From a virus (Duplodnaviria > Heunggongvirae > Uroviricota > Caudoviricetes), in IMG/VR virus record IMGVR_UViG_3300023707_000001: a stretch of 64,000 bases of DNA; one strand, given 5' to 3'. The position numbers and the translations under genes are program-made. Within the stretch, counting starts at the first letter, position 1. Each line of letters begins with the position of its first letter. The notes under the pieces are model-generated. The model worked only from the letters and a program-made list of their open reading frames with translations. It was not told the DNA's origin and did not search any database. Shown one piece after another: positions 3,109 through 43,362 of the stretch.

Positions 3109-5078
3109 GGCATCAAATGATAGAAAATAAATTAAAGGTGATAGACTTCTCTGCAGCCTTGCGGTCAGAACCTCTTAATTACAACTTTGATATCGTAAAG
3201 GGATGGGTTGACCGTGAACGCCTCCGCACAGGAGGTTACGGATTGGTAGAAGGTTTTGATATCTCCTATGCGGGAAATTATTTCGTGGATATTGGTGAAG
3301 GTATTCTAATTGACATGGCCGGCGAAGAAATCATTGTGCCGCCCACCAGACTTCAGTTCGCACCGCCCATGTATGAAAGAATTACAGAACGTGTACAGGT
3401 ATCGGAAGATGGTGAAATTCTGCTCAAGTATACGCCCTATTCTCCATCCGCAGAAGGACTGATATTTGTAAATGCTTATCGGGCAACCAATTACAAACCG
3501 GAAGAGCTTGTCATTAGGGAACCGAGTGGTACGCTCGGCAACCTGAAAGCTATCAATGTAGATGGCAGAAAGATTGGCGTTACTACTCGTGCTGCCGGCC
3601 TGATTGTCGAAGTAGAGTATTGCTACTGCAATGACCGTGTGGATGCCATTATGATTAATGATAAGGCCCAGTACAGCACAGAGTTTGGTATTAATGCAGA
3701 GTCGCCAAGTGCTGCCAACGTAAATCTCGATAAAAGATTCTTAATTGCTTTTGCGCACTGGATTATCGGCGAGACGATTGATGTGGAATTTATCGTTGAC
3801 GATAGAACATACCGAAAGGTATACGTTGACCGATTAAACCGCCTCTTCTTAAACGGCAAACTTTACCAGGAACCACGCTTTATCTATTTTGTGGAGCCGG
3901 AATCTCCCGAAGAAAATGATATCTGGTATGACTACGACAGCAATACCTTAAACATCTGGTCCAGAACAAATGGTGTATGGGGCTGGCGCATTATGAACGA
4001 TTTTACGAATGTGCCGCTTAGAACCATAAAAATGTGGACGGTAAAAGAATTCCCTGAAGACGGCCAGACCTTCCTGTTCGATGAAAGCGAAACGAATCTT
4101 CGGTTTATCCCCAACACGAATGCACTGGAAATCACCATTGACCAGCAGGTTGTTATGGCTGACCAGTTTACTGAGGTAGTGCAGGCGGGAACAAAACCAT
4201 ATTTATCATCCGGTATCGGCTTCAAGCTGGTTGAGCCTTTGGACAGGCCAACTGTTGTACAGTGCGTAGTTCATCATGTTGTAAAAAATGCTCCGTTAAA
4301 AAACGTGTTCCAGCGGGCGGCAATTTTTACGGCAGAGAACTTCTTCCCGTATAATGCAGCAATAAACCCGGACAAGATTTTTGTAACTGACCTTCCGTAT
4401 GCGATTAAGGCAAGTCAGCTTGAGGTATTTGTGGATGGCCGCAGACTGATTCGCGACCTGGACTTTGCTGAAATGGTAGATGGTGAAAAGAACGCTACTG
4501 ATTCGGACAAGGATGTTACAACAAAATACTTCCGCATCATGTGTCCAATTGAGGATGGGCAACAGGTTTCTTATAAAATTTCCCGTTATGTCTGGAGCTA
4601 TGACCAGCTTAACGAAATGATGAACGAGATTGAACAGAAGGCTGATAAGGCCCTGAAAGACCTGACCACACTCAATGATAAGGTTGATACGATGTCTGAT
4701 AATATCGGCAAAGTATTGGACTCCTTAAAAGAGAGAATGGAAAATGCGGAAGCAAAACTTGAAACGCTGAAAGAGTACAGAAAGACATCGGAAAAGATAA
4801 AGGTAGACGACCTGGCTGACGATTTACGCAAAGGCGTTATCAAGTCTCGCGCACAGATGGTATTTAACGCTTCCAATATTGATAACACAATTGCGGATTG
4901 CAAAAAAGAAGATTATGTACATATCGTGTGTGTTAATAACGAAGGTGTCGTACCGCTCAATGAGGATTCCGAGTATAGTCTCGTCTATGTAGAAGACGGC
5001 GCGATTATTGATTTGGAATCCGAATGGATGTCTCCGGATAATACTTTGTATGTAAACATTATCCGCATAGGACGATGA
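3105..5078 (+). CDS. Putative virion/tail structural protein with coiled-coil C-terminus
   Basis: EPESPEENDIWYD motif typical of tail-fibre proteins; LEVFVDGRRL beta domain; heptad-rich C-terminal region. Confidence 0.55.
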   Translation: MRHQMIENKLKVIDFSAALRSEPLNYNFDIVKGWVDRERLRTGGYGLVEGFDISYAGNYFVDIGEGILIDMAGEEIIVPPTRLQFAPPMYERITERVQVSEDGEILLKYTPYSPSAEGLIFVNAYRATNYKPEELVIREPSGTLGNLKAINVDGRKIGVTTRAAGLIVEVEYCYCNDRVDAIMINDKAQYSTEFGINAESPSAANVNLDKRFLIAFAHWIIGETIDVEFIVDDRTYRKVYVDRLNRLFLNGKLYQEPRFIYFVEPESPEENDIWYDYDSNTLNIWSRTNGVWGWRIMNDFTNVPLRTIKMWTVKEFPEDGQTFLFDESETNLRFIPNTNALEITIDQQVVMADQFTEVVQAGTKPYLSSGIGFKLVEPLDRPTVVQCVVHHVVKNAPLKNVFQRAAIFTAENFFPYNAAINPDKIFVTDLPYAIKASQLEVFVDGRRLIRDLDFAEMVDGEKNATDSDKDVTTKYFRIMCPIEDGQQVSYKISRYVWSYDQLNEMMNEIEQKADKALKDLTTLNDKVDTMSDNIGKVLDSLKERMENAEAKLETLKEYRKTSEKIKVDDLADDLRKGVIKSRAQMVFNASNIDNTIADCKKEDYVHIVCVNNEGVVPLNEDSEYSLVYVEDGAIIDLESEWMSPDNTLYVNIIRIGR

Positions 5079-5103
5079 CCTGATTTTGGAGGTAATGTAG
5101 GAC

Positions 5104-5553
5104 ATGGAAAAACCCTCAATAACATGGTTTGTTCGGCGCGAGCAGGAAGATAATTACGAAGAAACAAGTGACTTCTATGCTGGCTCGTACAATCAGGAGG
5201 ATAACCTGGAAATAGAGTTCATGATTTGGAACAATCGGTATGGTACAGAGCGTGTCGCGGATTTGAAGGATTTCGGCATCACGGTATCATTTGACCACGA
5301 AGAGGACGGGAGCCTGCTTAAGTACTGTCAGTTTGTATTAAACGGTGGTTACTGGCTCACGCCACAAGTGGCAGGCAATGAAGCCACGGTACAATTTCCG
5401 AAGGATACTATATTAAGTGGCGCAATCAATAATGGGGAGTTGGGTAACTCTGAAAATTACCTGACGCTCAAAATGATCTTGGCTGTTCCGTCAGGAAAGA
5501 AACTGAAGATGAACGATATCAAGGGCATGACTTTTAGTGTTACAAACTTATAA
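5104..5553 (+). CDS. Hypothetical structural-region protein
   Basis: 149-aa ORF with GGAGG/AGGA upstream. Confidence 0.55.
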   Translation: MEKPSITWFVRREQEDNYEETSDFYAGSYNQEDNLEIEFMIWNNRYGTERVADLKDFGITVSFDHEEDGSLLKYCQFVLNGGYWLTPQVAGNEATVQFPKDTILSGAINNGELGNSENYLTLKMILAVPSGKKLKMNDIKGMTFSVTNL

Positions 5554-5558
5554 AGGGG

Positions 5559-6638
5559 ATGCTGTTCTTGAATAATAAAACCACAATTGGTTTTAATGAC
5601 AATTATCCTTACGGGAATGGCGGAGCAAGCGTCACAGATAGGGTTATTACCGATAAGATGTTGTCTGATTTGGAGCTTCGTCTGGCGGCAGAAGGCCTTC
5701 CGGACAAGCTCAATCAAAAAACACTTGTACTTGACCCTACAACCGGGCAAATTGTAATTGGTGACGGGTCAGGAAATCCCAAAGTAATATCCTGCATAAA
5801 GGTAATTGGTACATTAGACGACCTGCCTGTAACCGGCCTTAATGACATGCTTTATGTCGCCATTTTTGAAAAAGCATTCGCTATTTGGGATAGCAGCAAC
5901 AATGCTTATGTAAAAATGGGAACCGGCGATTCGGGAAGTACCGCGCTGGATAAATCGGTTGAAACATATCCGTCGGTTGCAAATTTCCCGCTCGAAGGCG
6001 AAAAAGACAAACTGTATGTTACATATAGCGGCAAGAGCTACTTCTTTGTTGATGGAAAGTACCGCCCCTTGTTTAGTGGAGGTGTGGATGCTTACACGAA
6101 AGAGGAAGCAGACGAGCTTTTCGCAAAGGAAGAAGTTCTTGGACAAAAGGCAGACGCAGAGTCAGTTTACACAAAGAATGAAGTAGATGACCTTTTAAGC
6201 ACGGTTCAAGCTGAAAAAGGTGAGCAGGGCGAAAAGGGAGACCAAGGTGACCCGGGTAAATCTGCTTATGACATTGCTTCGGAGGCCGGATTTGACGGAA
6301 GCGAAGAAGAATGGCTGGAGTCTCTGCGTGGCGAGCAAGGTGCAGATGGTATTTCTGGACGAGATGGTGCGTCCGCTTACGAGATTGCCAAGAATAACGG
6401 CTTTACTGGGACAGAAGAGGAATGGCTCGAATCCTTAAAGTCGGATGCTGACGTTTCAGTTGTTACACCAGACGATATTGACGCACTCTTTAATGAAAGG
6501 GAAGAGCAGAAGCTGGAAGATGTTCTCTCCGTCGCTTCTCTTGAAGAGGTCGATGCCTTGTTCAAGAATAAGCCAGTCATGGAAGTAGAACCTCTGCGCA
6601 TCGCTTCCCTTGAAGAAATAGATGCTCTTTTTCAATAA
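5559..6638 (+). CDS. Collagen-like tail fibre/appendage protein
   Basis: GXY repeats (GEQGEKGDQGDPG); two SAY(D/E)IA...GFxGxEEEWLESL repeats; three C-terminal (E/D)(I/V)DALF repeats. Confidence 0.7.
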   Translation: MLFLNNKTTIGFNDNYPYGNGGASVTDRVITDKMLSDLELRLAAEGLPDKLNQKTLVLDPTTGQIVIGDGSGNPKVISCIKVIGTLDDLPVTGLNDMLYVAIFEKAFAIWDSSNNAYVKMGTGDSGSTALDKSVETYPSVANFPLEGEKDKLYVTYSGKSYFFVDGKYRPLFSGGVDAYTKEEADELFAKEEVLGQKADAESVYTKNEVDDLLSTVQAEKGEQGEKGDQGDPGKSAYDIASEAGFDGSEEEWLESLRGEQGADGISGRDGASAYEIAKNNGFTGTEEEWLESLKSDADVSVVTPDDIDALFNEREEQKLEDVLSVASLEEVDALFKNKPVMEVEPLRIASLEEIDALFQ

Positions 6639-6666
6639 AATAAAAACGAAAGGAACGGAGTGAAAC

Positions 6667-8097
6667 ATGGATACTCGTCCAGAGGAAGTAACTGAAGAAA
6701 ATATTGATGAAAAATTAATCAACTACGCCGACCTTAGACGTTTTGGTGAAAATATAAATAGGCATTATGCCTCCGTTGGCGTCTTAAAAGCAAAGGCCAA
6801 TATCACCGAAGTGTATACCCGCAAGGAAATCGATGATAAGCTGGCTGATATTTCTGTTGGCGAAGGCGTTAAGGGTGACAAAGGTGACCCCGGAGAACAG
6901 GGCCCAAAAGGTGACCCTGGCCAAGACGGACAAAACGGCCGTGATGGTACAGATGGGAAATCCGCCTTTGAAATCGCAAAAGAGAATGGCTTTGCAGGGA
7001 GCGAAGCAGAGTGGCTGAAATCACTGCAGGGAACCCCTGGCACAAATGGAGTTTCGGGACAAGATGGTGAGTCTGCTTACGAAATTGCCGTAAGAAATGG
7101 TTTTAAGGGCACAGAAAAAGAATGGCTGGAGTCCTTAAAGGGAGAAGGCGGCACGCCTGCAGACCCCATCGATACAACAAATTTTGTACAGAAGAATGAA
7201 CTGGAAGGATATGCTACGAAGGAAGACATCCCCGATGTTACCGGACTTGCCAAGAAAAGTGACATCCCGGATGTATCCAACTTAGCAAAAAAGAGCGATA
7301 TTCCTGATGTATCAAACCTTGCTACAAAGGATGATATTCCTGACCTTACAGGCTATGCTAAAGCTGAAGATATTCCCAAGCAGAAAACATTGGCGGAGCT
7401 GGGCGGCGTAACACAGACCGGCGTTGAGGCAATCATTCAGGCAAAAGATTTTACATCCACTGACGTTGTAAGGCAAATGATTGAAGCTGCCATTGCTGAG
7501 GCCTTGAAGAATAATGGTGGCAATAGTGGCAGTGGCGAGAGCGGTAGCGGCGGTAATAGTGGCAGCGACACTCCAGAACCGGAGCCTACTCCGCAACCAT
7601 CACTGCCTCAATTTGATGAAAGCGACTACGCATGGACGCACTACTTTGTAGTTCCGGCCGGCTGTCATTTTATAACTGACCATGCCAGCACCTTCTTCGG
7701 TGACCCGCTAACACCGGAAGACCTGTTTGGTCCCAACTATGACATGAAGAATGCTACAACCGAAATTCGTGTACTTGGTACATTGAGAGATAACGAAAAC
7801 ACCGAAACGGTGGTTGATGACGCCATTAAAGGGCGCACAATCGGTTACGACTTCACCGAGTATTATAAAGAGGGCTTAAGGGTGCCGCTGGATGCTGCCG
7901 AAGGGGTAGACGTGGATGGCTTCTGTAAAGAGCTCGATAGGGTTTGCCGTTGGAACGATGGCGCCATTAGCCACGACGGTGAAGAGATAATGGAAACAAC
8001 CTTGATGACTTCCGGATGTGGACTCCTATATATCATCCGTAAGCTGAAAGATGGCAAGACGTTCCCCGAGTATACAATTGGTGAAAAACTCAAATAA
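6667..8097 (+). CDS. Collagen-like tail fibre/appendage protein
   Basis: GXY repeats; SA(F/Y)EIA...EWLxSL repeats; 11-aa AKKSDIPDVSN repeats; Gly/Ser and PEP linker before a globular C-terminal domain. Confidence 0.7.
   Translation: MDTRPEEVTEENIDEKLINYADLRRFGENINRHYASVGVLKAKANITEVYTRKEIDDKLADISVGEGVKGDKGDPGEQGPKGDPGQDGQNGRDGTDGKSAFEIAKENGFAGSEAEWLKSLQGTPGTNGVSGQDGESAYEIAVRNGFKGTEKEWLESLKGEGGTPADPIDTTNFVQKNELEGYATKEDIPDVTGLAKKSDIPDVSNLAKKSDIPDVSNLATKDDIPDLTGYAKAEDIPKQKTLAELGGVTQTGVEAIIQAKDFTSTDVVRQMIEAAIAEALKNNGGNSGSGESGSGGNSGSDTPEPEPTPQPSLPQFDESDYAWTHYFVVPAGCHFITDHASTFFGDPLTPEDLFGPNYDMKNATTEIRVLGTLRDNENTETVVDDAIKGRTIGYDFTEYYKEGLRVPLDAAEGVDVDGFCKELDRVCRWNDGAISHDGEEIMETTLMTSGCGLLYIIRKLKDGKTFPEYTIGEKLK
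7210..7380 (+). repeat. 33-nt coding tandem repeat (about 5 copies of xAxKxDIPDxxx)
   Basis: YATKEDIPDVTG LAKKSDIPDVSN LAKKSDIPDVSN LATKDDIPDLTG YAKAEDIP. Confidence 0.8.
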
Positions 8098-9220: not shown

Positions 9221-9904
9221 TTGGCTACGAAAACTCGCGGTATACGCAAAGTTAGCGAAAACGTTCTCGCTCCTGGCAGAGCGATAATTATTACCGAAAA
9301 AGATAAAGACAAGTACAAGTGGGGAGACATCCCTGTCGGCTCGAAATTTATCGACACAGCCACGGGAATCGAAATGGTCAAACTCGAAGGCGAGAGCGAC
9401 TGGGTTCCCGCAGGTGTTAAAAATGATGGAACGATTTGTATTTCCAAGGACTCCGTAATCACTTGTGAAATTTACACAATCACGGAAATAGATAAAGATA
9501 AAAGAACATTCCGGTATCATAACGAAGATGGTGAGTATAGGAACTCAACAATGGTTTATGATGAGGAAACCGAAGAGCTGACCTATTTGTTTAAAGTTGA
9601 AAAGGGCGATTTTCAGCCGGGACGAAACCTGCTGCAGGTAACCCTTAATGATGCACTGACCCGTTCCGCTGCATCGGGCGGCTTGGTTGAAATCACAAAC
9701 CGCCACTTTGGTTTCGTTGAAAACCTGGAAGTTGGCGATGAACTCACTGTTATTTATATCCATAAAATCAATATCGGCAATCCATATCCGAGAATTTTCT
9801 ACGGGGGCACGGTTCCTGTTGATGCGGAAGATGGAGACCTCTGGCTTGATACATCTTCGGCACCGTATAACGGAAATGAGATAGTTGAGGTACAAGGGGA
9901 ATAA
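9221..9904 (+). CDS. Structural-region protein; N-terminus paralogous to 15889-16911
   Basis: RGIRKVSENV...GRAII...IPVGSKFID vs QGVHKVSENI...GRGVI...VPDGSIWVN; C-terminal DAEDGDLWLDT fibre motif. Confidence 0.55.
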   Translation: MATKTRGIRKVSENVLAPGRAIIITEKDKDKYKWGDIPVGSKFIDTATGIEMVKLEGESDWVPAGVKNDGTICISKDSVITCEIYTITEIDKDKRTFRYHNEDGEYRNSTMVYDEETEELTYLFKVEKGDFQPGRNLLQVTLNDALTRSAASGGLVEITNRHFGFVENLEVGDELTVIYIHKINIGNPYPRIFYGGTVPVDAEDGDLWLDTSSAPYNGNEIVEVQGE

Positions 9905-9906
9905 AA

Positions 9907-11199
9907 ATGAGTGAAAGAAAGAAAAAGAAAACAGCCCTTATAAGGGAGCATATGCTTGAGCCGGATTTTCGCAAGAAGATTCGTCTCAACGACAAACTGA
10001 TTGGGCTTGACGACCTTACCCCCGAAATTCGTAAGAAGATAACCAATATTGCTTTGAATGAGGGAACGGCGTATGACGATAATGAACTCCGTGAGCGAAT
10101 TACAAATCTGGAAAACGGAGGAACTACGCTTGGTGAAGTATTCGTAAAAGACCTGGACAAGGTTTCCCGCAAAGACCTGGATTATAATGCTCAGGTGGCA
10201 TATGACAGAGCAAATGAAGTCCCGGAACTGCAGGAGAAGAAAGCGGATAAAGAATATGTGGATGAAAACTTCCGCAAGAAGGCTATCCCAGTAATTCAGG
10301 GCGACTTTGACCCACTGCTGCAGAAAAAGCTTAATGATATGCAGGCAAATCTTAACAGTATCATGGCAAATTTTGATTCCAATAGCGGTGCAGTAACCTC
10401 CGTCCAAGCCCTCGAAGAGGCAGTTAAAAACCTTAGTACGACGAAGGTTGAAAAGACCTACGTGGATAAAACCTTCCGTAAGGCTATTGACCAAATTTCG
10501 TTGTCTGATGTGGATAGCACTATCGCAGAGCCTGTCAATTCAATCCCGCAGATGCAGAAAAAATTGGATGACGCGGCAATGCTGTCAGACCTGGAAAACT
10601 ACCGGCCAAAAGCAGATCAAATCCGAATGGAAGATATGACAAACGATTTGCGCGATAAGCTTAAGAAAGTTTTCGATAGTGCGGACGATGCTAAGAAGGC
10701 CGCAGAAGAGTCATTCAAAGAAAACTTTGATTCCTATGGTATAACCCAGATACTCGACCGTTATGGTGACCTTATCTGTACAGACCCTGTTAACCCGCAT
10801 GTAATTGCTGGTGTTGACCAGATGAGTGACATGGAAAGAAAGTTCAAAGGTATTTATCCGTTCAGTCTTGCCGTAAACATCACAAAGTATATCGGGACGT
10901 ATGGTATCGGGGAGTCCAATCCATTGGGCGGCCGCATGAGTTTTTCCGGAGCTATCAATTATCTGTACGATTTGATTATGAAGACGTCCGGTGATGAAAG
11001 CCCGTTTGGCCTGTTCTTGAACTCTGGTAAAAAAGATATTAAGAAGCTCCGGGATGAATTGGATGCCTTAACGGAAACGGTCGAAACTATGCAGGGCGAT
11101 ATTGAAGACCTGCAGACGGAAAACACTGCACTGAAAGAGCGCGTCAAAAAACTGGAAGATAGCAGTAGCAGCGGAAGCGACAGCGGTGGAAAAAAATAA
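9907..11199 (+). CDS. Coiled-coil structural-region protein
   Basis: YDDNELRERITNLE, KADKEYVD and a C-terminal coiled coil. Confidence 0.55.
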   Translation: MSERKKKKTALIREHMLEPDFRKKIRLNDKLIGLDDLTPEIRKKITNIALNEGTAYDDNELRERITNLENGGTTLGEVFVKDLDKVSRKDLDYNAQVAYDRANEVPELQEKKADKEYVDENFRKKAIPVIQGDFDPLLQKKLNDMQANLNSIMANFDSNSGAVTSVQALEEAVKNLSTTKVEKTYVDKTFRKAIDQISLSDVDSTIAEPVNSIPQMQKKLDDAAMLSDLENYRPKADQIRMEDMTNDLRDKLKKVFDSADDAKKAAEESFKENFDSYGITQILDRYGDLICTDPVNPHVIAGVDQMSDMERKFKGIYPFSLAVNITKYIGTYGIGESNPLGGRMSFSGAINYLYDLIMKTSGDESPFGLFLNSGKKDIKKLRDELDALTETVETMQGDIEDLQTENTALKERVKKLEDSSSSGSDSGGKK

Positions 11200-11217: not shown

Positions 11218-11847
11218 ATGAGATTACTTAGGTACGATGCAAAAAAGAAACGGTGGATACAGCTGTTTGCCGATTCTGCCTTGGATAAGTATAAAAACCT
11301 TTCGGATGTCGTTGATAAAAAAGCGGCACGAGATAATCTCGAACTGGATGAATATTATTGGAATAAAGCGGCGTTGAAAGACGGCGCCGCTGTCAATTCC
11401 ATCCATAACGTATGTGTTATCCAGGATGAGAAAGCTCAGTTTGTAACGAAGGCAGATAAAGAAAACTGGAACCAGAAGGTAGACCGGCCAATCGTAAAAT
11501 CCACTGCGGATGAAGAACTTCCCGAAATGACGGAAGGCCAGATGGTTTACAACCGCGCTACGGATACCATCAAGGTTAAGATTGACGGTAAAATTCGCGA
11601 TTTTGAAAACAACCGCGAAATCCATGGCACAGCAAATTTTGCAGGAATGGGAAATGAAGTTAAGATTGAACATCATCTGGAAACCATTCACGGCGTAAAA
11701 ATAACGCCAAAATTTGTTGGCATATCATGTGTCACCAACCCTGGAGGAATGTTAGGTGAAACATGGACGAGAAAAGACGATACGTATTTTTATGTAGGGA
11801 ATACAGGTAGTTATCAAGGGCCATTTGAATATATGGTTTACTACTAA
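11218..11847 (+). CDS. Tail-fibre-like protein
   Basis: NLSDVVDKKAARDNLEL and QFVTKADKENWNQK motifs typical of phage fibres. Confidence 0.6.
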   Translation: MRLLRYDAKKKRWIQLFADSALDKYKNLSDVVDKKAARDNLELDEYYWNKAALKDGAAVNSIHNVCVIQDEKAQFVTKADKENWNQKVDRPIVKSTADEELPEMTEGQMVYNRATDTIKVKIDGKIRDFENNREIHGTANFAGMGNEVKIEHHLETIHGVKITPKFVGISCVTNPGGMLGETWTRKDDTYFYVGNTGSYQGPFEYMVYY

Positions 11848-11869: not shown

Positions 11870-13144
11870 TTGAGACAACTACCAACAGCGGCAAGCTTAC
11901 TTTTAACGGAAAACTGCAACTTGCGATGCACTTATTGTTTTGAGAAACACAACAAAACAAAAATGAGCAAAGAGGTTGGACGAAAGGCAATCGACTGGCT
12001 TTCGGATAATGCTGTGAAAACAGGCCTGGATGAGTTTTCCGTTCTCCTCTTTGGGGGAGAACCGCTACTCAATATCGACACGATTGAGGAAGTGTTAGAA
12101 TACGGCGTAAAAGTCGCAGACGAAAAAGGACTCCGCTTTACGGCGTCAATGGTTACGAATGCCACAGTAATGAATGACCATATTTATAGCGTACTCCGTA
12201 AATACCGCGACATGGTTAATCTTGGCATACAGCTTTCTGTGGATGGAATTCCTGAAGTACAGGACAGATACAGATTGACGGTTGCCGGAAAAGGCTCGTG
12301 GCATATGGTTGAAAAGAATCTGCCAAGATTCAAGGAGCTTTACGATAACAACCCGGACGATAACCGCCTGTCCATTCATGGCTGCATCAATAAGGAAACA
12401 ATGCCATTCCTGTATGAGAATTACAACTTCTTCCGTAAGGAATTAGGGTTCAAGCGTATCTGGTTCCTTCCGATAGCCGAGGAAAAATGGGATGCGTCAG
12501 ATGTAAAGCTCTATCAGGAAAACAGCCAAAAAATCTTCAACGACTGTGTCGCAGATTTGCTGCAGAGCATGGACTATCAGGAAGCTCTCAATTATGCGCC
12601 GTTTGATAAGTTTGCAAATGGTCTGGAGTGTCGCCCGGACGCACCGTGCGGCGCCGGCAGAAGTTTTGTCACAATAACCGCAACGGGCGAAATTTATCCA
12701 TGCCATCAAATCTACTTCAATGACCCGGAAAAAGATACGCTGATTGGCAATGTGATGGGCGATGGAGAACTGGATGAAGACAGACGAAGAATTTTCCTTG
12801 AATACGAAGAGGAAGATATTGGATGTCAGGATTGCCCAAATACACAGTGCTACAGATGTCTTGCTACAAACTATGTAAACAACGGAGGCATTCTCTCTCA
12901 AATTAGGGGGCTGTATTGTGCCCTGTCTGGTATCGACAGATATTTCCAAGGCAAAATGTTGGAGGTTGTACGGAAATTGCGTCTGGCATCACAGGGCGAC
13001 GATGAAGTGCAGGACTGCTTGTGTAATTCCCGAAGTGCAACGTCAGTTAATGGCTGCGATATCGTAAATAACAAAGACTTGTGTCAGTCGGGAAACAATC
13101 CTAAAGCGCCGGGATGCCTCTGCGACGTAGATAGCGGATTTTAA
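11870..13144 (+). CDS. Radical SAM/SPASM-domain enzyme (anSME/peptide-maturase type) with Cys-rich C-terminal tail
   Basis: CNLRCTYC; FGGEPLL; SPASM CGAG...GEIYPCH...CQDC...CYRC...C; GGAGG RBS before TTG 11870. Confidence 0.92.
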   Translation: MRQLPTAASLLLTENCNLRCTYCFEKHNKTKMSKEVGRKAIDWLSDNAVKTGLDEFSVLLFGGEPLLNIDTIEEVLEYGVKVADEKGLRFTASMVTNATVMNDHIYSVLRKYRDMVNLGIQLSVDGIPEVQDRYRLTVAGKGSWHMVEKNLPRFKELYDNNPDDNRLSIHGCINKETMPFLYENYNFFRKELGFKRIWFLPIAEEKWDASDVKLYQENSQKIFNDCVADLLQSMDYQEALNYAPFDKFANGLECRPDAPCGAGRSFVTITATGEIYPCHQIYFNDPEKDTLIGNVMGDGELDEDRRRIFLEYEEEDIGCQDCPNTQCYRCLATNYVNNGGILSQIRGLYCALSGIDRYFQGKMLEVVRKLRLASQGDDEVQDCLCNSRSATSVNGCDIVNNKDLCQSGNNPKAPGCLCDVDSGF

Positions 13145-13171
13145 CAGAATAATGAATAAGAGGACGATAGG

Positions 13172-13957
13172 ATGGCTTTAAGAAGCTTAAAAAACACATA
13201 CAGCCGAATGGTTGATGATATAAGACAAAGCGGGCCAGCCAATAATGATTGGAAGGATTTGGCAACCTTAAAGGACCGGCTTGACAAAATGTATAAGTAT
13301 CGCAATAACGAGATAATCGATAGCGACCCCAGAAATTCAAATGATGATACGCCAGGACAGATTCATAATGTGTGTACGCAACATTATTACAAAAGCTTCA
13401 AGGACTTCCAGCAGAAAATGGGAGTGGATTACAGCCTGTCCATCGGTGATATCGACAATGCTCTCGATAGTATGCCGTATTGTACATGCAATGGCCGGTC
13501 TATGCAAGCATGCAAATGTGTGGCCCGAGATGCTGGCGATCATTGTTCGTGCAATGTAAGAGCGCCTATTGGGTGCGCTTGCGTATACCGCAACGGTGGC
13601 AAGTATGGCAGCCCGTGTGCAATAAATAGCTACAATTTTGGATGCAGCTGTGTAAGCCGGGCGGCTACTAGAGATTGTGATTGCAACGGTCGTTGCTCCT
13701 GTAATGTGGTGAATGAATACACCATGAAAACATATAGACAGAAGCTAAACGACGAAGGCATTACGGAAACCTGCCGTTGTGTATCAAGGCAGCTTGGCGA
13801 TGTATGCCTGTGTCACGCCAGAACTGTTGCAGCACAACCCCCTACTCATAGGCATACAATGGGGTGTAATACAAAGTATAATGTGCCGCAAAAATATTGT
13901 GACTGCGTACAGAGAACGTCATCAATATCGTGTGAATACCACGAAATACATTTATAA
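13172..13957 (+). CDS. Cys-rich CxCxxR-repeat protein, putative radical SAM substrate
   Basis: 24 Cys; nine CxCxxR motifs after an approximately 100-aa Cys-poor N-terminus; GAGGA RBS. Confidence 0.8.
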   Translation: MALRSLKNTYSRMVDDIRQSGPANNDWKDLATLKDRLDKMYKYRNNEIIDSDPRNSNDDTPGQIHNVCTQHYYKSFKDFQQKMGVDYSLSIGDIDNALDSMPYCTCNGRSMQACKCVARDAGDHCSCNVRAPIGCACVYRNGGKYGSPCAINSYNFGCSCVSRAATRDCDCNGRCSCNVVNEYTMKTYRQKLNDEGITETCRCVSRQLGDVCLCHARTVAAQPPTHRHTMGCNTKYNVPQKYCDCVQRTSSISCEYHEIHL

Positions 13958-13986
13958 GTAGTTAGTTAAGTAGTTAAGGAGTTAAT

Positions 13987-14880
13987 ATGCTGGAAAGATA
14001 CGTCATTCACGTTACCAAAGCATGCAATATGGATTGTTTTTACTGCTACGAGCAGGACAAAACAAGCAAGTATACAAAAGAGGAAGTTCTTGGCACCGTT
14101 GAAAAAATCGCCGCAAATTGCAAAGACAAAGAATTTGGTGTGGAATTTCTTGGCGGTGAGCCAATGCTTGCTTTTGATATTATCAAGGCGGTATATGAAT
14201 ATTTGGAGGAAAATTACAAGGGCCGCGTCAGGGATTACGTCATCACAACAAACGGCACAATACTGACGGATGATATGTTGGCATACCTACAGGAAAATCC
14301 TAAAATCGTATATGCTGTTAGCCTGGACGGTACGAAGTGGGCAAACCAGCTTCGCCGTTTTAAGGGCGGGGCCGGAGCATTTGAGCCGGTTGTGGCAAAC
14401 TTAAAGAAAGCAATCAACGGGCTTTCCGATGAACAGATAAGCGTACATATGGTAACGCATCCATTTAATGTCGGCAACATATTTAATAGCATTAAGTTTA
14501 TTCATAGCATGGGTGTTAAATACATCGGTGTTGGTACAGTGGAAAGTACAATGCTTATTGATGCGATGTACTGTGAAAGATTCGTTCAGGAAATGGATAA
14601 AGTAAGCCAGGCTATTGTTAGTGGTGAGCTGGCCGGGGTGGAGATAGATATTCTAAACACCGTTAAGCCTGTTGATGATGTGCGTACGTACATTAAAGAT
14701 GATACCGGCAAGGTAATCGGCGAAAGCTATGGTAGAAGCAAGGACGATATAACGTATACGAATGAATTTAACAGCGTGCGTACGGCATCGCCGATTGGGG
14801 ATGTAATTGTTTCGCTGCGCAGATGCGTTTATGAAAATCACCAGTATAGACTCGGAGGAAATAATGATAAAATCGCTTGA
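13987..14880 (+). CDS. Radical SAM enzyme lacking SPASM cysteines
   Basis: CNMDCFYC; FLGGEPML; ITTNG; VSLDG; AAGGAG RBS. Confidence 0.9.
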   Translation: MLERYVIHVTKACNMDCFYCYEQDKTSKYTKEEVLGTVEKIAANCKDKEFGVEFLGGEPMLAFDIIKAVYEYLEENYKGRVRDYVITTNGTILTDDMLAYLQENPKIVYAVSLDGTKWANQLRRFKGGAGAFEPVVANLKKAINGLSDEQISVHMVTHPFNVGNIFNSIKFIHSMGVKYIGVGTVESTMLIDAMYCERFVQEMDKVSQAIVSGELAGVEIDILNTVKPVDDVRTYIKDDTGKVIGESYGRSKDDITYTNEFNSVRTASPIGDVIVSLRRCVYENHQYRLGGNNDKIA

Positions 14881-15853
14881 ACACATCAAAGGACTTTGGG
14901 CAAAGTTAGACAAAAACGAAAAGCTGAGCATATACATCAATATCCCGTTCTGTAAATGTCAGTGCAGGTATTGCCTTTATAAAGGAGAGCCGGGCGCGGG
15001 GGACGAAGAACATCGAAAGTTTGTATACGATTACCTGATTCCGTCAATCAAAAGATTCCATGACTTATTCGATGAGCATGAAATCGAAACGATATACTTC
15101 GGTGGCGGAACACCAAATGCAATCCCCATAAAATACATTATGGATATATGCGATGCAACAGCATGCTTCAATCGAGCAAAGAATAGAATTATTGAAATGA
15201 ATCCGGCGTACTGCTCCGTTCAGGACGTAGAACTGTTAACCGATTTTGGTTTTACACTGATTACGTTCGGCGTTCAGTCGTTCTGCAAAGAAGCTCTTAA
15301 TTTCCAGCAAAGGCCATACTGCAGCGAGGATAAAATCACAAAACTTGGCAAGGCTATCCAGTCTCTTGGCGGAAAGTTCAGTCTGGACATCATGTGCTAT
15401 TTGCTAAAGTATGACAAGAGCGACCTTGAGATATTCAAACAGGATGTTGAGATTGCGAAAAGAACGAACGCGGACTTTGTAACGATATACCCGGAGCTGA
15501 ACCTAATCCTGAATGATGAACAGGCAGCAAACGATTTTGTGCAATGCGTAAAGAATGTTGACTGGAGCGGATATTGGCTGGACGATGATACTACCAATAT
15601 AGAAAAGACGCACAGATTGATAACTCGGATGGTTAAGGACAAATACAGTGAAGAAGAATTCTATGAAAGCATCCTTCCTTATTATGCGGACGACTTCCCA
15701 TACGCAACACAAAACATTGTTAGTTTTGGCGCAGGAAATGGTAAGCATGATGTAATGTCCTATGTGCCGGGAGAATTCTATTATGTAGAAGTCAACCTGG
15801 GAACCAATACACCAATATACAATATGAAATTCGAAGAAGGGGAACCGCAATAG
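14864..15853 (+). CDS. HemN-like (class C) radical SAM enzyme
   Basis: SIYINIPFCKCQCRYC; TIYFGGGTP; TFGVQSF; GGAGG before ATG 14864; overlaps the upstream stop. Confidence 0.88.
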   Translation: MIKSLEHIKGLWAKLDKNEKLSIYINIPFCKCQCRYCLYKGEPGAGDEEHRKFVYDYLIPSIKRFHDLFDEHEIETIYFGGGTPNAIPIKYIMDICDATACFNRAKNRIIEMNPAYCSVQDVELLTDFGFTLITFGVQSFCKEALNFQQRPYCSEDKITKLGKAIQSLGGKFSLDIMCYLLKYDKSDLEIFKQDVEIAKRTNADFVTIYPELNLILNDEQAANDFVQCVKNVDWSGYWLDDDTTNIEKTHRLITRMVKDKYSEEEFYESILPYYADDFPYATQNIVSFGAGNGKHDVMSYVPGEFYYVEVNLGTNTPIYNMKFEEGEPQ

Positions 15854-15888: not shown

Positions 15889-16911
15889 ATGTCCAAGCCT
15901 CAGGGTGTCCATAAAGTCAGCGAAAACATTGTTCAGCTGGGAAGAGGAGTAATCTATACAGAAGAACTGGACAATATCGATATGGAAAAAGTCCCAGATG
16001 GTTCTATTTGGGTGAATGTAGACAATGGTGGTTTGGCGGTAAAGTTGAGAGGGAGCGATTCATTCACAGAGCTCCCAATCGGCCTTGCTGACGCTGATGA
16101 TGACGAAAGTCAGAAACTGCTGGAAGAGTTTGTAAAAAAGTATGCAAACGCCGATATCCAGCACAAGCACATCGAGGAAGATGTCCTAAAAAATAAAGAG
16201 AAGATACAAGAGTTAAAATCTCTGCTTGAAAAACTGCAAGAGCAAATTCACAACATAAACATATACGCCCTATACGAAAGTTTGACTGACAGGTTTACAG
16301 AGCAGGGAAACGAAATTATAACACTGCGAAGGGAAAAACTCGATAAGAAGGACCTAAAGCTCTTTGTTACAATAGACCAGATGGAACCGATTATCCAGGA
16401 AAGGACAGCGCAGTTTGCAAGCAGAAAAGAGCTTGCTGAAATAAAAACCGACTTCAACAATGTCGTAAAGACCTTTGCAACAAAAGATGAGCTGGATAAA
16501 AAGCTGTTTGAAAAAACACAGCCACTGGCTCAAGAGAAAGACGTTCAAACGTTAGGGGAGCAGTTAAAAACGCTTATTCAGGAAGTAGAGGAAATCAAGC
16601 TTGATAACCAGGAGAAAGCAAAAGAGCTAGATGAAAAGTTTGGGGATATTGACGATAAGCTTATTGAGCTCGACGCAGCAACCGGAGATAAGGTTATCAA
16701 ATCGCTTACACTGGAAGCTGGACAAACCAAGCCATGCGAAATTGACGAAGGAAAGCAATATCGCATAATGCAAGTTTATATCAAAAAGCCGAGCGAGGAC
16801 TTGTGGTCATTCGATACAGAGCAAATTGATGTTGCAGCTGATGAGAATGGGGCAGTTAATGTTACAAACAAGTCATCGAATGAACTTGATTGTTTACTGA
16901 TACTGATGTAA
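15889..16911 (+). CDS. Coiled-coil structural-region protein (N-terminal paralog of 9221)
   Basis: GGAGG RBS; shared KVSEN N-terminal domain; long heptad region. Confidence 0.55.
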   Translation: MSKPQGVHKVSENIVQLGRGVIYTEELDNIDMEKVPDGSIWVNVDNGGLAVKLRGSDSFTELPIGLADADDDESQKLLEEFVKKYANADIQHKHIEEDVLKNKEKIQELKSLLEKLQEQIHNINIYALYESLTDRFTEQGNEIITLRREKLDKKDLKLFVTIDQMEPIIQERTAQFASRKELAEIKTDFNNVVKTFATKDELDKKLFEKTQPLAQEKDVQTLGEQLKTLIQEVEEIKLDNQEKAKELDEKFGDIDDKLIELDAATGDKVIKSLTLEAGQTKPCEIDEGKQYRIMQVYIKKPSEDLWSFDTEQIDVAADENGAVNVTNKSSNELDCLLILM

Positions 16912-16914
16912 TAG

Positions 16915-18000
16915 GTGATAACAATGAAATCAAAAGCTACAGCACTTCATGTTGCAGAATTGAATGAGAGAGTCTTGGATAACGCAAGAAATGTAAGACG
17001 CTGTCTCGAAATGGTTGAAGAAATAGCCATACAGATTAACGAAGCGATTGAAAGCTACCGTAATTTTAAGCGGGATAAGAAAGTTTGCATGGATGCCGTT
17101 AATCTGGAGGTAACAAACCGAGAACTCCAGTACGGAGTAATTGAAAAGCAGATGGCCGGTATCCAAAAAGCTGCCCGTGAGATGGAGGACATGCGGGAGA
17201 GCTTTGAAGAAACCAGAGCAACTGTGGTGGAGAATTCGTCAACCATCACAGATATTACGAAAAACATTGAACAGCTAAAAAACGACGTCACAAAAGAATT
17301 TGCAAAGAAGATAAGCACATCTGGCGGCACGATATATGGTGACCTGACCGTAACCGGCATGGTTAATGGCCGTGCTGAGAAAGCAAAGGAAGCGGAAAGT
17401 GTCGAGTGGGATGCTGTGCAAAACAGGCCGGAATATTATCCGCCCGCACAACATAACCATGATGACCTTTATCCTGCAATCAATGGTGAGCGGGCCGAAG
17501 GTAAATGGAATATCGATATTTCTGGTAAGGCAGATAAGGCTGGCGATGCAGACCGAGCCGATAATGCCGACCATGCAGCAGTTGCAGATAAGATTGATTG
17601 GGCAGGTATTGAGAACAAACCAGAAAATTACCCGCCGGCAGAGCATAACCACGATGCCTTGTATCCATCCATAAAAGGTGAACGTGCAGAAGGTGTCTGG
17701 AATATTGATATCGACGGTGAGGCAAAAAGGGCCAAATCCGACAGCGAAGGCAATATTATCACTGCAACCTATGTGAAAAAAACTGACATGGGGGAACTGC
17801 AGAAAGAAATCGGCAAAATTTCGACGGAGATAAAAGAATCCTTAAAGGGGACATCTGTTGAAAACGAAACGCCGGATGAAAAAATCACGCTGCGCTGTGA
17901 AGTTGAAAATGGCATGCTCACGGTTGTTCCTTATGTGAATGGGGAGCGGGCCTACATTACTTCCAGTGTTATTGCCTGTGAAGACACCAGTGAAGAATAA
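16915..18000 (+). CDS. Tail-fibre-like protein with internal repeat
   Basis: Two copies of W..(V/I).N(R/K)PE.YPPA.HNHD.LYP.I.GERAEG.WNIDI; GGTIYGDLTVTG motif. Confidence 0.65.
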   Translation: MITMKSKATALHVAELNERVLDNARNVRRCLEMVEEIAIQINEAIESYRNFKRDKKVCMDAVNLEVTNRELQYGVIEKQMAGIQKAAREMEDMRESFEETRATVVENSSTITDITKNIEQLKNDVTKEFAKKISTSGGTIYGDLTVTGMVNGRAEKAKEAESVEWDAVQNRPEYYPPAQHNHDDLYPAINGERAEGKWNIDISGKADKAGDADRADNADHAAVADKIDWAGIENKPENYPPAEHNHDALYPSIKGERAEGVWNIDIDGEAKRAKSDSEGNIITATYVKKTDMGELQKEIGKISTEIKESLKGTSVENETPDEKITLRCEVENGMLTVVPYVNGERAYITSSVIACEDTSEE

Positions 18001-18080
18001 TAAAGAAAAACATAACGCGGTCTTGTTTAGACCGCCGTTTGTGTGCGTAATATTCCGACAAGAAAGATAAAATAAGAAAG

Positions 18081-36800: not shown

Positions 36801-37820
36801 TTGGTAATCTTAAGCAGAAAGAAGATAACCATCATAAAAAAGAGAAAAAAACTTTTAGAAGACGTTGTTGTGCGCGACGTCGATAAAACCCAGGTTTTCG
36901 AAAATGGTTTTGTAACCATCCGAACTGTCTTTAAGGAAGAAGCAGATTATCTCTGGGATTTATACCAGCACGAAGATGAATGGCGCGAAATCGATGAGCT
37001 TGTGCGTCAGTATCAGGGGCAATTTAAAGAAGGGGCCACAGAAGAAGCCCGTCAGATTGCAAACGCAGCTGGCACAGAGCTCTTAAACAGATTCCAGCCG
37101 TTATTCAAAAAGTATGTAATCCTTTTAAAAAATGGCCAGATTAACTTCCATAATAGTGAGCAACGTCAGTTTGTACGCCTGTTTATTCAGGAGCTTCACC
37201 TGCAGAAGGCACTTAGCCGTAAAAATCCTGGCCGGGATTACTGTGAACAGATTACAGCCCGTTTTAACTTTTTGATTGAGGGCTATGGACACCAAGATGA
37301 AGAAGAGATTTATGACGATATGCGGGTGATCTTCTTCATGCTTGTTAAACGATATAAGGACGTGGGCCGCAGTTTCTGCTGTTACGTCTACAACGTGTTT
37401 AAGTACGAGGTTTGCCGTCATATTCAAAAATATCAGCGCAACCCGGCAAACTTTCATTATAAAATTGCAGAACTCGAGGATAACTGCAAAACGGTTATGG
37501 ATGACTACAGCTCTATCGAAGATGTCGTCTATGAAGATGACCAGGGGCTTCCCGATATGACATGGATTCGAGGCGATACATGTTCGGAAATCTTCCAGCA
37601 GTTTACCGATGAAGAACGGCTGATATTCTCGAAATATTACCTGCAGGATTGGAACGATAGTCAGATTGCCCAGCTTCTCGGTATGCATATCAACACTGCA
37701 AACCAGAGAAGAAAGAGCATTACCAGACGCTTATGCAAAACGCTTGGTTTTGACCCGAAGGACATTGTGAGACATCGTAAATCCGGAAAGAAAGCCATCC
37801 TCAACACAGAGGTAGCTTAA
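36801..37820 (+). CDS. Phage RNA polymerase sigma-like factor (start uncertain)
   Basis: Region-2-like ELLNRFQPLFKKY; region-4 HTH EERLIFSKYYLQDWNDSQIAQLLGMHINTANQRRK. Confidence 0.7.
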   Translation: MVILSRKKITIIKKRKKLLEDVVVRDVDKTQVFENGFVTIRTVFKEEADYLWDLYQHEDEWREIDELVRQYQGQFKEGATEEARQIANAAGTELLNRFQPLFKKYVILLKNGQINFHNSEQRQFVRLFIQELHLQKALSRKNPGRDYCEQITARFNFLIEGYGHQDEEEIYDDMRVIFFMLVKRYKDVGRSFCCYVYNVFKYEVCRHIQKYQRNPANFHYKIAELEDNCKTVMDDYSSIEDVVYEDDQGLPDMTWIRGDTCSEIFQQFTDEERLIFSKYYLQDWNDSQIAQLLGMHINTANQRRKSITRRLCKTLGFDPKDIVRHRKSGKKAILNTEVA

Positions 37821-42531: not shown

Positions 42532-43362
42532 TTGAGCATAAAAATTCCAGAAAAAGAAGTCGACGTCATGGTCCAAATGTACAATGCTGGAAAAAATACA
42601 ACTCAAATTGCGGAGGCCTTACACCGGGATAGACATGCAGTATCGAGAAATTTAAAGAAGCGTGGCGTTGATGTTAAACCCACTCAATTTACGCAAATTA
42701 GTAAAGATTTTGATAAAAAGTATTTCGACAAAATCGATACTGAACAAAAGGCGTACATATTAGGCTTGTTGTTTGCAGACGGCACCTGTAATAAGTATGG
42801 CTCAACGTCGATACAGTTACAGGAATGTGACAAGTATATTTTAGACGAAATAAAAGCAGAAATGAAGCATGGCGGAAAAATAATAAGAATCGCCCAGAAA
42901 CAAAATTTCAAAGAATGTAAAAAGTCTAAAACGAGATATCGGTTTACCGCGTCCTGCAAATATATGACAGAAAAACTAATACAAATGGGGATGAGAAGTA
43001 AGGAACACATCCCCGAAATGCCAAAAGAAATGATTCCTCACTTTTTAAGAGGGAATTTTGATGGCGACGGGTGTATATATGTGCCTGAAAAACCAAGAAG
43101 TAAAAGTGATGGTTTGTTTTATTTCATGGGGGAGCAAAGCTTTTGTGCTGATATTGTAAAATATTGCAGAGAGAATAATATATGTGATTTTACAAAAATT
43201 GACAAGAGAAAAGGCATATACCAAATTAGGAAAAGCGGAAACAAGCAGGCCATGAAGAATATGTATGGTCTTCTTTATAAAAATGCAAAAATCTATATGA
43301 AAAGGAAGAAAGAAAAATGGGACTTGTACATGAAACGGAATCCGGAGTTATTGCAGGCATAA
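42532..43362 (+). CDS. Free-standing double-motif LAGLIDADG homing endonuclease with N-terminal HTH
   Basis: AYILGLLFADG and HFLRGNFDGDG; AT-rich relative to neighbours. Confidence 0.88.
   Translation: MSIKIPEKEVDVMVQMYNAGKNTTQIAEALHRDRHAVSRNLKKRGVDVKPTQFTQISKDFDKKYFDKIDTEQKAYILGLLFADGTCNKYGSTSIQLQECDKYILDEIKAEMKHGGKIIRIAQKQNFKECKKSKTRYRFTASCKYMTEKLIQMGMRSKEHIPEMPKEMIPHFLRGNFDGDGCIYVPEKPRSKSDGLFYFMGEQSFCADIVKYCRENNICDFTKIDKRKGIYQIRKSGNKQAMKNMYGLLYKNAKIYMKRKKEKWDLYMKRNPELLQA

Follow-up and report, generated by a model that had tools for sequence, protein, structure and literature searches.

Organization of the radical SAM locus

A 64,000-nt stretch of DNA from a tailed virus (Caudoviricetes; IMG/VR record IMGVR_UViG_3300023707_000001), referred to below as the window, contains a cassette of four genes coding for three radical S-adenosylmethionine (SAM) enzymes and a cysteine-rich protein carrying CxCxxR repeats. 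All cassette genes are located on the + strand: the radical SAM/SPASM enzyme rSAM1 (11870-13144, TTG start, 424 aa), the Cys-rich protein CysR (13172-13957, ATG start, 261 aa), the SPASM-less radical SAM enzyme rSAM2 (13987-14880, ATG start, 297 aa) and the HemN-like radical SAM enzyme rSAM3 (14864-15853, ATG start, 329 aa). GGAGG-type ribosome-binding sites fix the start codons of the four genes, and the open reading frames (ORFs) of rSAM2 and rSAM3 overlap by 17 nt. The source of the window is a giant phage of anaerobic gut-type bacteria; the identical CysR protein is present on contigs reaching 340 kb.

The cassette is part of a row of nine + strand genes extending from about 9.2 kb to a hairpin (18017-18035, + strand), the first terminator-like break 3' of the cassette, and no convincing promoter or terminator break was found between these genes. 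The tight coupling of the four genes at 11870-15853 that had been noticed from the letters of the DNA in an earlier, sequence-only reading is confirmed.

Related loci, numbered from L001 onwards, were gathered by exact look-up of CysR, exact look-up of rSAM3, a scan of IMG/VR with rSAM1 and a scan of 185,579 species genomes, and were compared by BLAST of all ORFs.

The SPASM enzyme rSAM1

All three enzymes pass the Pfam model Radical_SAM (PF04055), with 34-65 bits against a gathering cut-off of 29.5 bits, and contain the CxxxCxxC cluster motif (C16/C20/C23 in rSAM1, C13/C17/C20 in rSAM2 and C30/C34/C37 in rSAM3). The Pfam matches of rSAM1 comprise Radical_SAM and Fer4_12, with SPASM at 18.4 bits, under its cut-off of 21.5 bits. 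Seven SPASM cysteines (C260-x12-G-x4-C278, C319-x2-C322-x4-C327-x2-C330 and C350) follow the pattern Cx9-15Gx4C...Cx2Cx5Cx3C...C with slightly deviating spacings; rSAM2 and rSAM3 lack this pattern.

The best NCBIfam family for rSAM1 is the ranthipeptide maturase PapB (NF047865), with 205 bits over profile positions 4-326 of 330, under the cut-off of 340 bits. It is followed by the SCIFF maturase TIGR03974 (146 bits, cut-off 425), whose criterion also requires an N-terminal RiPP recognition element (RRE; RiPP, a peptide made by ribosomes and modified after translation), by QhpD (138 bits, cut-off 453), nif11, CcpM, the CXXX-repeat maturase TIGR04115 (110 bits, cut-off 350) and CefB. The model of the anaerobic sulfatase maturase (anSME), TIGR03942, gives only 82 bits (cut-off 349), and the CrpC-type model TIGR04463 also gives 82 bits, in the N-terminal half only (cut-off 525). 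Among solved structures, that of the thioether synthase CteB comes closest (5WGG, E 2.8e-32); since rSAM1 aligns only from residue 98 of CteB onwards, it has no N-terminal RRE domain. Judged by these sequence matches, rSAM1 is a three-cluster-type radical SAM/SPASM enzyme of the thioether-maturase type, with PapB and CteB as its nearest relatives.

Past the SPASM domain, rSAM1 carries a C-terminal tail (13016-13141, + strand) in which the substrate-type motif recurs twice, as CLCNSR and CLCDVD. The element GNN-x5-CxC is conserved in this tail; G408, N410, C416 and C418 are invariant in seven homologues (42-55% identity), most of which read CLCD.RG, and the rSAM1 of locus L014 contains three C.CDLR.G copies. 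The enzyme of L024, which is 39% identical to rSAM1 and has a neighbouring Cys protein of another type, has no such motif tail. One to three CxC(D)xR copies are kept only in the clade with CxCxxR partner proteins, which connects rSAM1 with the CxCxxR motif irrespective of how the genes are arranged. The tail copy may represent a pseudo-substrate or docking element.

The CxCxxR-repeat protein CysR

CysR consists of a helical N-terminal domain with a single Cys (aa 1-103; 13172-13480, + strand), in which the motif DL..LK..L..MY..RN is conserved, and a repeat region (aa 104-261; 13481-13957, + strand), the presumed substrate region. The protein contains 24 Cys and 10 CxC pairs, nine of them extended to CxCxxR and one to CxCxxV, all past residue 103. 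Shuffling of residues 101-261 yielded 0.25 CxCxxR on average and at most three in 20,000 trials, against nine in the real protein, which bears out the description of a 261-aa Cys-rich CxCxxR-repeat protein given in the sequence-only reading. Origin of the motif from a tandem DNA repeat was rejected, because the coding DNA is not tandemly repeated. CysR has no signal peptide and matches no Pfam, PHROG or NCBIfam model, CXXX-repeat targets included.

A profile search among 1.84 billion representatives assigned only 33 clusters to the CysR family, with members of 165-612 aa. Their common layout is an N-terminal domain of about 70-100 residues almost without Cys, followed by 5-18 CxCxxR motifs among up to 25 CxC pairs. 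The family logo, derived from 494 CxC units, reads C-[STD]-C-[NVQD]-[SATG]-R(79%)-T(36%); the units are mostly spaced by 6 or 9-11 residues, and 87% of the family Cys are in CxC pairs. The CysR of L014, with 81 Cys and 27 CxCxxR units, lies outside the family alignment. Some members contain additional non-Cys parts, namely a C-terminal extension of about 340 aa in P0024 and an internal insert in P0033, and these extra domains argue against a short cleaved peptide as the product.

In an AlphaFold2 model of CysR built with 37 sequences, residues 1-100 fold, mostly as helices, with a pLDDT (predicted local distance difference test) score of about 70-92. The model has no fold match: VIA-align against PDB representatives gave Z of at most 3.8, no Foldseek match in BFVD had an E below 1.3, and nothing usable came from the ESM Atlas. 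DNA and protein searches of isolated phages found no CysR relative, and radical SAM proteins there are 23-32% identical at most. A scan of IMG/VR with the first CysR alignment gave no matches, as its search patterns were too weak; rSAM1 as query did find loci.

The SPASM-less and HemN-like enzymes

The 29-nt spacer between CysR and rSAM2 contains 2.9 copies of an 8-nt unit, TAGTTAAG, at 13963-13985, directly 5' of the rSAM2 ribosome-binding site.

rSAM2 is a paralogue of the N-terminal half of SPASM peptide maturases. Its best NCBIfam family is again PapB (105 bits, under the cut-off of 340), and the best structural matches of its AlphaFold2 model (pLDDT 94.6) are CteB (Foldseek E 3e-15), anSME, ChlB, SkfB and TigE, with viperin, NifB and pyruvate formate-lyase (PFL)-activase ranking lower. 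Only the three cluster cysteines (C13/C17/C20) are invariant among 44 homologues. By sequence and model, rSAM2 is a one-cluster paralogue with a peptide-maturase core.

rSAM3 contains the CxxxCxxC motif, the HemN-type GGGTP motif and GVQSF; it matches HemN (1OLT) as well as NocN (9P2U), a class C methyltransferase. The NCBIfam families STM4012, HemW and ChuW score 68-77 bits, all under cut-off. The HemN_C domain (PF06969), present in more distant HemW matches, is absent from rSAM3 and its clade, which places them outside HemN/HemW. The clade is tight and comprises about 27 clusters from uncultured metagenome contigs only, the longest of these contigs, 210-340 kb, being giant-phage-sized. A gap in score, 177 bits inside the clade and 88 bits for the next matches, separates it from Lachnospiraceae and HemW proteins. 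By analogy, rSAM3 is most simply regarded as a class C-type methyltransferase. It was seen only in the window, L001, L015, L016 and L017, always as the fourth cassette gene, and its absence from all other loci (L007-L014, L018-L023) indicates that it is an accessory of one sub-clade, outside the conserved core.

The enzyme classes named from the letters alone thus held on closer comparison, with rSAM1 a PapB/CteB-like SPASM enzyme, rSAM2 a SPASM-less enzyme with a peptide-maturase core and rSAM3 HemN-like.

Co-occurrence of the cassette genes in phages and prophages

CysR and rSAM2 are present in all complete loci in which rSAM1 is at least 41% identical to that of the window, about 14 phage or prophage loci. 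Complete sets of rSAM1, CysR and rSAM2 occur in L001, L007, L010/L021, L011/L012, L013, L014/L020, L016, L017, L018, L019, L022 and L023. Among the incomplete loci, L009 ends before rSAM2, L015 contains only the end of rSAM1, and L008 ends inside rSAM1 and is uninformative. CysR and rSAM2 were found in none of the 67 loci L031-L097, where the rSAM1 relatives are 27-32% identical and represent ordinary Clostridial SPASM maturases. Gene order is rearranged in L011 and L013, with the cassette genes still together; linkage kept despite such rearrangement points to a functional, not merely inherited, linkage. CysR, rSAM1 and rSAM2 are inherited together. The expectation that all three radical SAM clades would accompany CxCxxR proteins in tail modules therefore stands for rSAM1 and rSAM2 and fails for the HemN-like enzyme, which is confined to one sub-clade. 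The module-bearing genomes are all anaerobic Bacillota or phages of these. Assemblies of Tissierella and Peptostreptococcaceae contain the complete module, and members of the rSAM2 family occur in Desulfitobacterium chlororespirans and Clostridium sp. LBM24168.

In L014, read with genetic code 11, rSAM1 and rSAM2 contain in-frame stops. The possibility that these genes are broken was rejected: each stop is a TGA at a conserved Trp position, and this phage or contig therefore reads TGA as Trp. The segment concerned is 7983-11909 of L014; L014 equals L020, whose contig of 127,832 bp is listed as 'Candidatus Izimaplasma bacterium HR2'.

Cassettes of other types were also seen. L024-L026 are prophages of Clostridium rectalis, a Lachnospiraceae metagenome-assembled genome (MAG) and a Clostridia MAG. 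Here the gene of an rSAM1-like enzyme (identity 32-39%) has a fibre gene on one side and, on the other, genes of small Cys-rich proteins whose repeats are of other kinds (CNC runs, D/N-C runs); rSAM2 is absent. In L025, the genes that come next were judged by eye to encode small membrane proteins and a lysozyme-like protein. L011 contains, upstream of its CxCxxR module, a second cassette (3365-5343). One of its products is a radical SAM protein of 418 aa with 27% identity to rSAM1, the other a protein of 241 aa whose 27 Cys are arranged in a non-CxC pattern.

In L001, whose proteins are 48-61% identical to those of the window, the gene 3' of rSAM3 (12881-13819) encodes a 312-aa protein that exceeds the Pfam Peptidase_U32 cut-off across 66 residues. 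The match is weak and would suit either a protease or an oxygen-independent hydroxylase of the U32 type; the gene has no counterpart in the window.

Tail-fibre neighbourhood

The gene directly upstream of the cassette encodes the probable short tail-fibre protein p209 (11218-11847, + strand), whose C-terminal 70 or so residues (aa ~135-209) form a domain that accompanies the cassette. p209 as a whole has no match in Pfam, PHROGs or NCBIfam. Its C-terminal domain recurs, at 27-49% identity, at the end of proteins that match PHROG tail-fibre and tail-collar families with their N-terminal parts (E down to 5e-80), and since p209 itself has no PHROG match, its identification as a fibre protein rests on this common domain. 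In nearly all loci the gene adjacent to the cassette ends in such a domain of about 70 residues, with the consensus F.G.G.E..I.HGL...P......P..NP.G.LGE.W.R.D..N.YVGN.GS.TG.F.W and no conserved Cys.

The N-terminal parts of these fibre proteins are diverse: a P2-type tail-collar domain in L010 (E 5e-80), tail-fibre repeats in L009, L011 and L013, and a domain labelled 'head protein' by PHROGs in L007. The start of the L007 protein presumably resembles a lactococcal-phage baseplate protein. Differing N-terminal parts combined with one end-domain indicate that cassette and one particular fibre end travel as a set among unrelated phage backbones. In L010 the module is located 3' of the fibre gene, after a tape-measure-sized ORF and other presumed tail-module ORFs, assigned without a family scan; in L007 it lies 3' of a 1477-aa tape-measure-sized ORF and distal-tail genes. 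The slot after the fibre gene is the usual site in phages for fibre chaperones or tip adhesins.

Upstream of p209, the window encodes the coiled-coil protein p430 (9907-11199, + strand), which has only sub-threshold Pfam coiled-coil matches and a conserved position in L001, L016 and L017; it is probably a fibre shaft. It is preceded by the fibre-type protein p227 (9221-9904, + strand), with homologues in the same three loci. The N-terminal domain of p227 (48% identity) heads a 439-aa fibre-like protein of L017 that ends in CNCRCRC. This protein is the first member of a second system (L017 8041-13085), in which it is followed by radical SAM genes, two of them over the Pfam cut-off, and a third ORF with a weak match. 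Further upstream, at 5.5-8.1 kb, the window contains collagen-like and other tail-fibre genes; the two collagen-like ones (5559-8097; 359 and 476 aa) have strong PHROG matches to tail fibres and collagen repeats.

Downstream of the cassette, p340 and p361 (15889-18000, + strand) are further genes of its transcription unit. Both are absent from L001 and L016 and hence are outside the conserved module. The genes on either side of the cassette had all been read as tail-fibre-like. This is probably right for the gene at 11218, which shares its end-domain with bona fide fibres; p361 (gene 16915) has only weak matches to tail-fibre families, and for p340 (gene 15889) no match was found in the Pfam, PHROG and NCBIfam scans.

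Proposed function of the module

The evidence favours, with a probability of roughly 0.55, a phage late-gene module that makes and enzymatically cross-links CysR, a fibre-docked protein of the tail-fibre apparatus. The folded N-terminal domain of CysR would be a retained leader or docking domain, responsible for enzyme recognition, fibre docking or both. rSAM1 would abstract hydrogen from side-chain carbons near the CxC pairs and join Cys sulfur there, forming thioethers of the ranthionine type within or between CxCxxR units, with the motif copy in its own tail acting as pseudo-substrate or docking element. A thioether role is assigned to rSAM1 because of its analogy with PapB, CteB, QhpD and, above all, CrpC with its substrate CrpA. 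Through such thioethers, the disordered repeats could become a knot or rod that is insensitive to redox conditions and resists proteases. rSAM2 may add a second, different radical modification, and in the sub-clade of the window rSAM3 may add a further one, most likely methylation. Finished CysR would then dock on the conserved C-terminal domain of the fibre as its distal tip or adhesin, giving a covalently braced fibre part. Oxygen-sensitive enzymes and disulfide-independent cross-links would fit the anaerobic Bacillota as carriers of the module.

Several points weigh against this interpretation. rSAM1 scores under the cut-off of every curated NCBIfam family, and CxCxxR fits no known ranthipeptide acceptor pattern such as CxxxD/E. 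The repeat region of CysR is unfolded in the AlphaFold2 model (pLDDT about 30), and CxC pairs are classic metal-thiolate ligands. Since the cluster cysteines are the only invariant ones, rSAM2 has no auxiliary cluster and no conserved H-donor Cys; the lack of an auxiliary cluster makes a reaction other than thioether formation probable, and the reactions assigned to rSAM2 and rSAM3 are guesses. The docking of CysR on the fibre is suggested by gene neighbourhood alone, and in L014 no p209-type domain is detectable upstream. Both cross-linking and virion location are predictions.

The chemistry could also differ from thioether formation. The anSME target C-x-P/A-x-R resembles the arrangement of a Cys followed by a conserved Arg in the repeats, in which the Arg is 79% conserved; rSAM1 matches the anSME model (82 bits) and anSME structures, and anSME ranks high among the matches of the rSAM2 model. 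CysR would in that case undergo conversion of Cys to formylglycine, as by anSME-like enzymes, or else epimerisation, C-C cross-linking or modification of the invariant Arg. This seems improbable, since rSAM1 scores far higher with PapB (205 bits), SCIFF (146) and QhpD (138) than with anSME, and the Arg of the repeats is at +3 or +5 from Cys and not at +4 as in the sulfatase motif. Epimerisation is further disfavoured by the absence of a conserved H-donor Cys from rSAM2.

Another explanation is that CysR is a metal- or iron-sulfur-binding component of the fibre and that the radical SAM enzymes act elsewhere, for example on the conserved C-terminal domain of the fibre. The HxH iron sites in the tip of the T4 long fibre offer a model for such CxC ligands. 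The placement of most family Cys in CxC pairs is a metal-thiolate pattern, and failure of AlphaFold2 to fold the repeat region alone is expected of a metal- or oligomer-dependent fold; a metal role was also considered for CrpA by its authors (PMC13692751). This explanation is unlikely, because it accounts neither for the strict co-inheritance of CysR with two enzymes of the peptide-maturase type nor for the substrate-like motif in the tail of rSAM1, and the C-terminal domain of p209, as the presumed target, has no conserved Cys. Metal binding and cross-linking of CysR are not mutually exclusive.

The leader and repeated-core layout of CysR is like that of multi-core RiPP precursors, and the maturase relatives of rSAM1 and rSAM2 are RiPP enzymes, so that the cassette might make a released RiPP-like product, a multi-core bacteriocin or effector, rather than a part of the virion. 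The Peptidase_U32-family gene after the cassette would agree with this, and it was seen in L001 only. As the sequence-only reading had remarked, no transporter or protease is recognised nearby, a statement that covers the Pfam and PHROG scans of the window and not every neighbour in the related loci. CysR has no signal peptide and some members carry large extra domains, and the module constantly occurs in tail-fibre gene sets of unrelated phages, beside one fibre end-domain. A released product is accordingly very doubtful, and the earlier preference for a structural part over a bacteriocin is favoured by the tie between the cassette and tail-fibre genes across unrelated backbones.

QueE- or NrdG-type radical SAM enzymes are frequent in phages, and rSAM3 resembles HemN, a member of a cofactor enzyme family. 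Modification of a nucleotide, cofactor or DNA, with CysR unrelated, can nevertheless be set aside almost entirely: rSAM1 and rSAM2 best match peptide and protein maturases by sequence and fold, QueE is absent among the listed matches, MoaA and viperin rank low, NrdG appears only as a weak PHROG match of rSAM2 (E 7e-4), and the genes are in the fibre operon and not in the replication block at 30-50 kb. A QueE/NrdG-type function was rejected on the NCBIfam scores and the structural matches of rSAM2; none of the three enzymes groups with QueE, NrdG or other nucleotide enzymes, a grouping that the sequence-only reading had named as a ground for refuting its proposal. Overall, the proposal of a RiPP-like pathway modifying a virion component is partly supported.

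Other features of the window

The replication block at 30-50 kb of the window encodes primase, DnaB helicase, RecJ and DNA polymerase. The polymerase gene is divided into two separate ORFs, at 43317-45497 and 48955-50298. The roughly 3.4 kb that part them contain an ORF at 45879-46940 and an HNH/homing-endonuclease-like gene (47522-48949). The split could be an intron or another mobile insertion. A 339-aa protein encoded at 36801-37820 has a weak PHROG match to RNA polymerase sigma factor (E 7e-8).

Significance and comparison with known systems

In our full-text literature search, which did not extend to subscription journals, the pairing of radical SAM enzymes and Cys-repeat proteins within tail modules of phages was not described in any paper. 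Thioether formation by radical SAM enzymes has been described in small peptides and, from 2026, in a single archaeal protein (PMC13692751). Neither the probable chemistry nor the notion of substrates the size of a protein is new. The new elements are the CxCxxR family, the obligatory pair of a SPASM and a SPASM-less enzyme, the HemN-like clade of uncultured contigs, the motif-bearing enzyme tail and the tail-fibre context. An enzyme of the radical SAM thioether type is here linked with the tail fibres of phages and with a new family of CxCxxR-repeat proteins that has no assigned fold.

In its widest form, which we put forward tentatively and at somewhat less than even odds, the proposal is that phages of anaerobic Bacillota use radical SAM enzymes of their own to introduce covalent non-disulfide cross-links into a Cys-repeat protein on the tip of the tail fibre. 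This would be an enzymatically 'hardened' host-binding organelle and the first case of a virion protein modified post-translationally by radical SAM chemistry. It would also bring a large new class of RiPP-like substrates of protein size, and an enzyme with a built-in pseudo-substrate. If true, it would represent a new kind of virion maturation step, would explain how exposed receptor-binding parts are stabilised in phages of strict anaerobes, where disulfides are unreliable, and would offer RiPP chemists protein-sized substrates with two or three dedicated enzymes.

The nearest characterised analogue of the cassette is CrpC/CrpA of Methanococcus voltae, where CrpA, a Cys-repeat protein of about 28 kDa, receives ranthionine cross-links from the SPASM enzyme CrpC (Dieter et al., 2026; PMC13692751). 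CrpA has a leader-like N-terminal domain and C-terminal repeats, no protease was identified, the AlphaFold model of its repeats is of low confidence, and phages are not mentioned in that work (PMC13692751). Both systems combine a SPASM enzyme with a whole Cys-repeat protein in which a leader-like N-terminal domain is followed by repeats. However, CrpC has an RRE, absent from rSAM1; the CrpA repeat is 17 residues long with a C-x-x-Q/D motif, in contrast to CxCxxR in CysR; and CrpC/CrpA is a cellular archaeal system, whereas rSAM1 belongs to the tail-fibre module of a phage and is accompanied there by a second (and third) radical SAM enzyme.

PapB/PapA, which makes freyrasin, is similar in that PapB is the best-scoring family for both rSAM1 and rSAM2, that rSAM1 shares its SPASM domain, and that the substrate has many repeated Cys motifs. 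PapA, however, is a short peptide with CxxxD motifs, unlike the 261-aa CysR with CxCxxR; substrates of the PapB family are marked by CxxxD/E, and their thioethers join Cys sulfur to a beta or gamma carbon. In the thermocellin system CteB/CteA (SCIFF; 5WGG/5WHY), CteB is the solved structure that comes nearest to rSAM1 and to the model of rSAM2, but it has an N-terminal RRE, which rSAM1 lacks, and a SPASM domain, which rSAM2 lacks, and the substrates are unrelated. QhpD/QhpC offers a precedent for a SPASM enzyme that puts Cys thioethers into a subunit kept in an assembly, QhpC being the gamma subunit of quinohemoprotein amine dehydrogenase; its acceptors are of the Cys-Asp/Glu type, and the system is a periplasmic enzyme, whereas the cassette belongs to a virus. 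rSAM3 shares CxxxCxxC and GGGTP with HemN, HemW and the class C methyltransferases NocN, NosN, TbtI and ChuW, and differs from the HemN type in lacking HemN_C, in forming a separate clade and in scoring below all cut-offs.

A parallel on the side of the virion is gp38 of the T2/S16 type, a small fibre-tip adhesin encoded just 3' of the fibre gene, with an N-terminal attachment domain and C-terminal short conserved motifs alternating with variable loops. CysR has a similar layout, by analogy only: there is no relation of sequence or fold between the two, the motifs of gp38 are glycine-rich, and gp38 needs no modifying enzymes.

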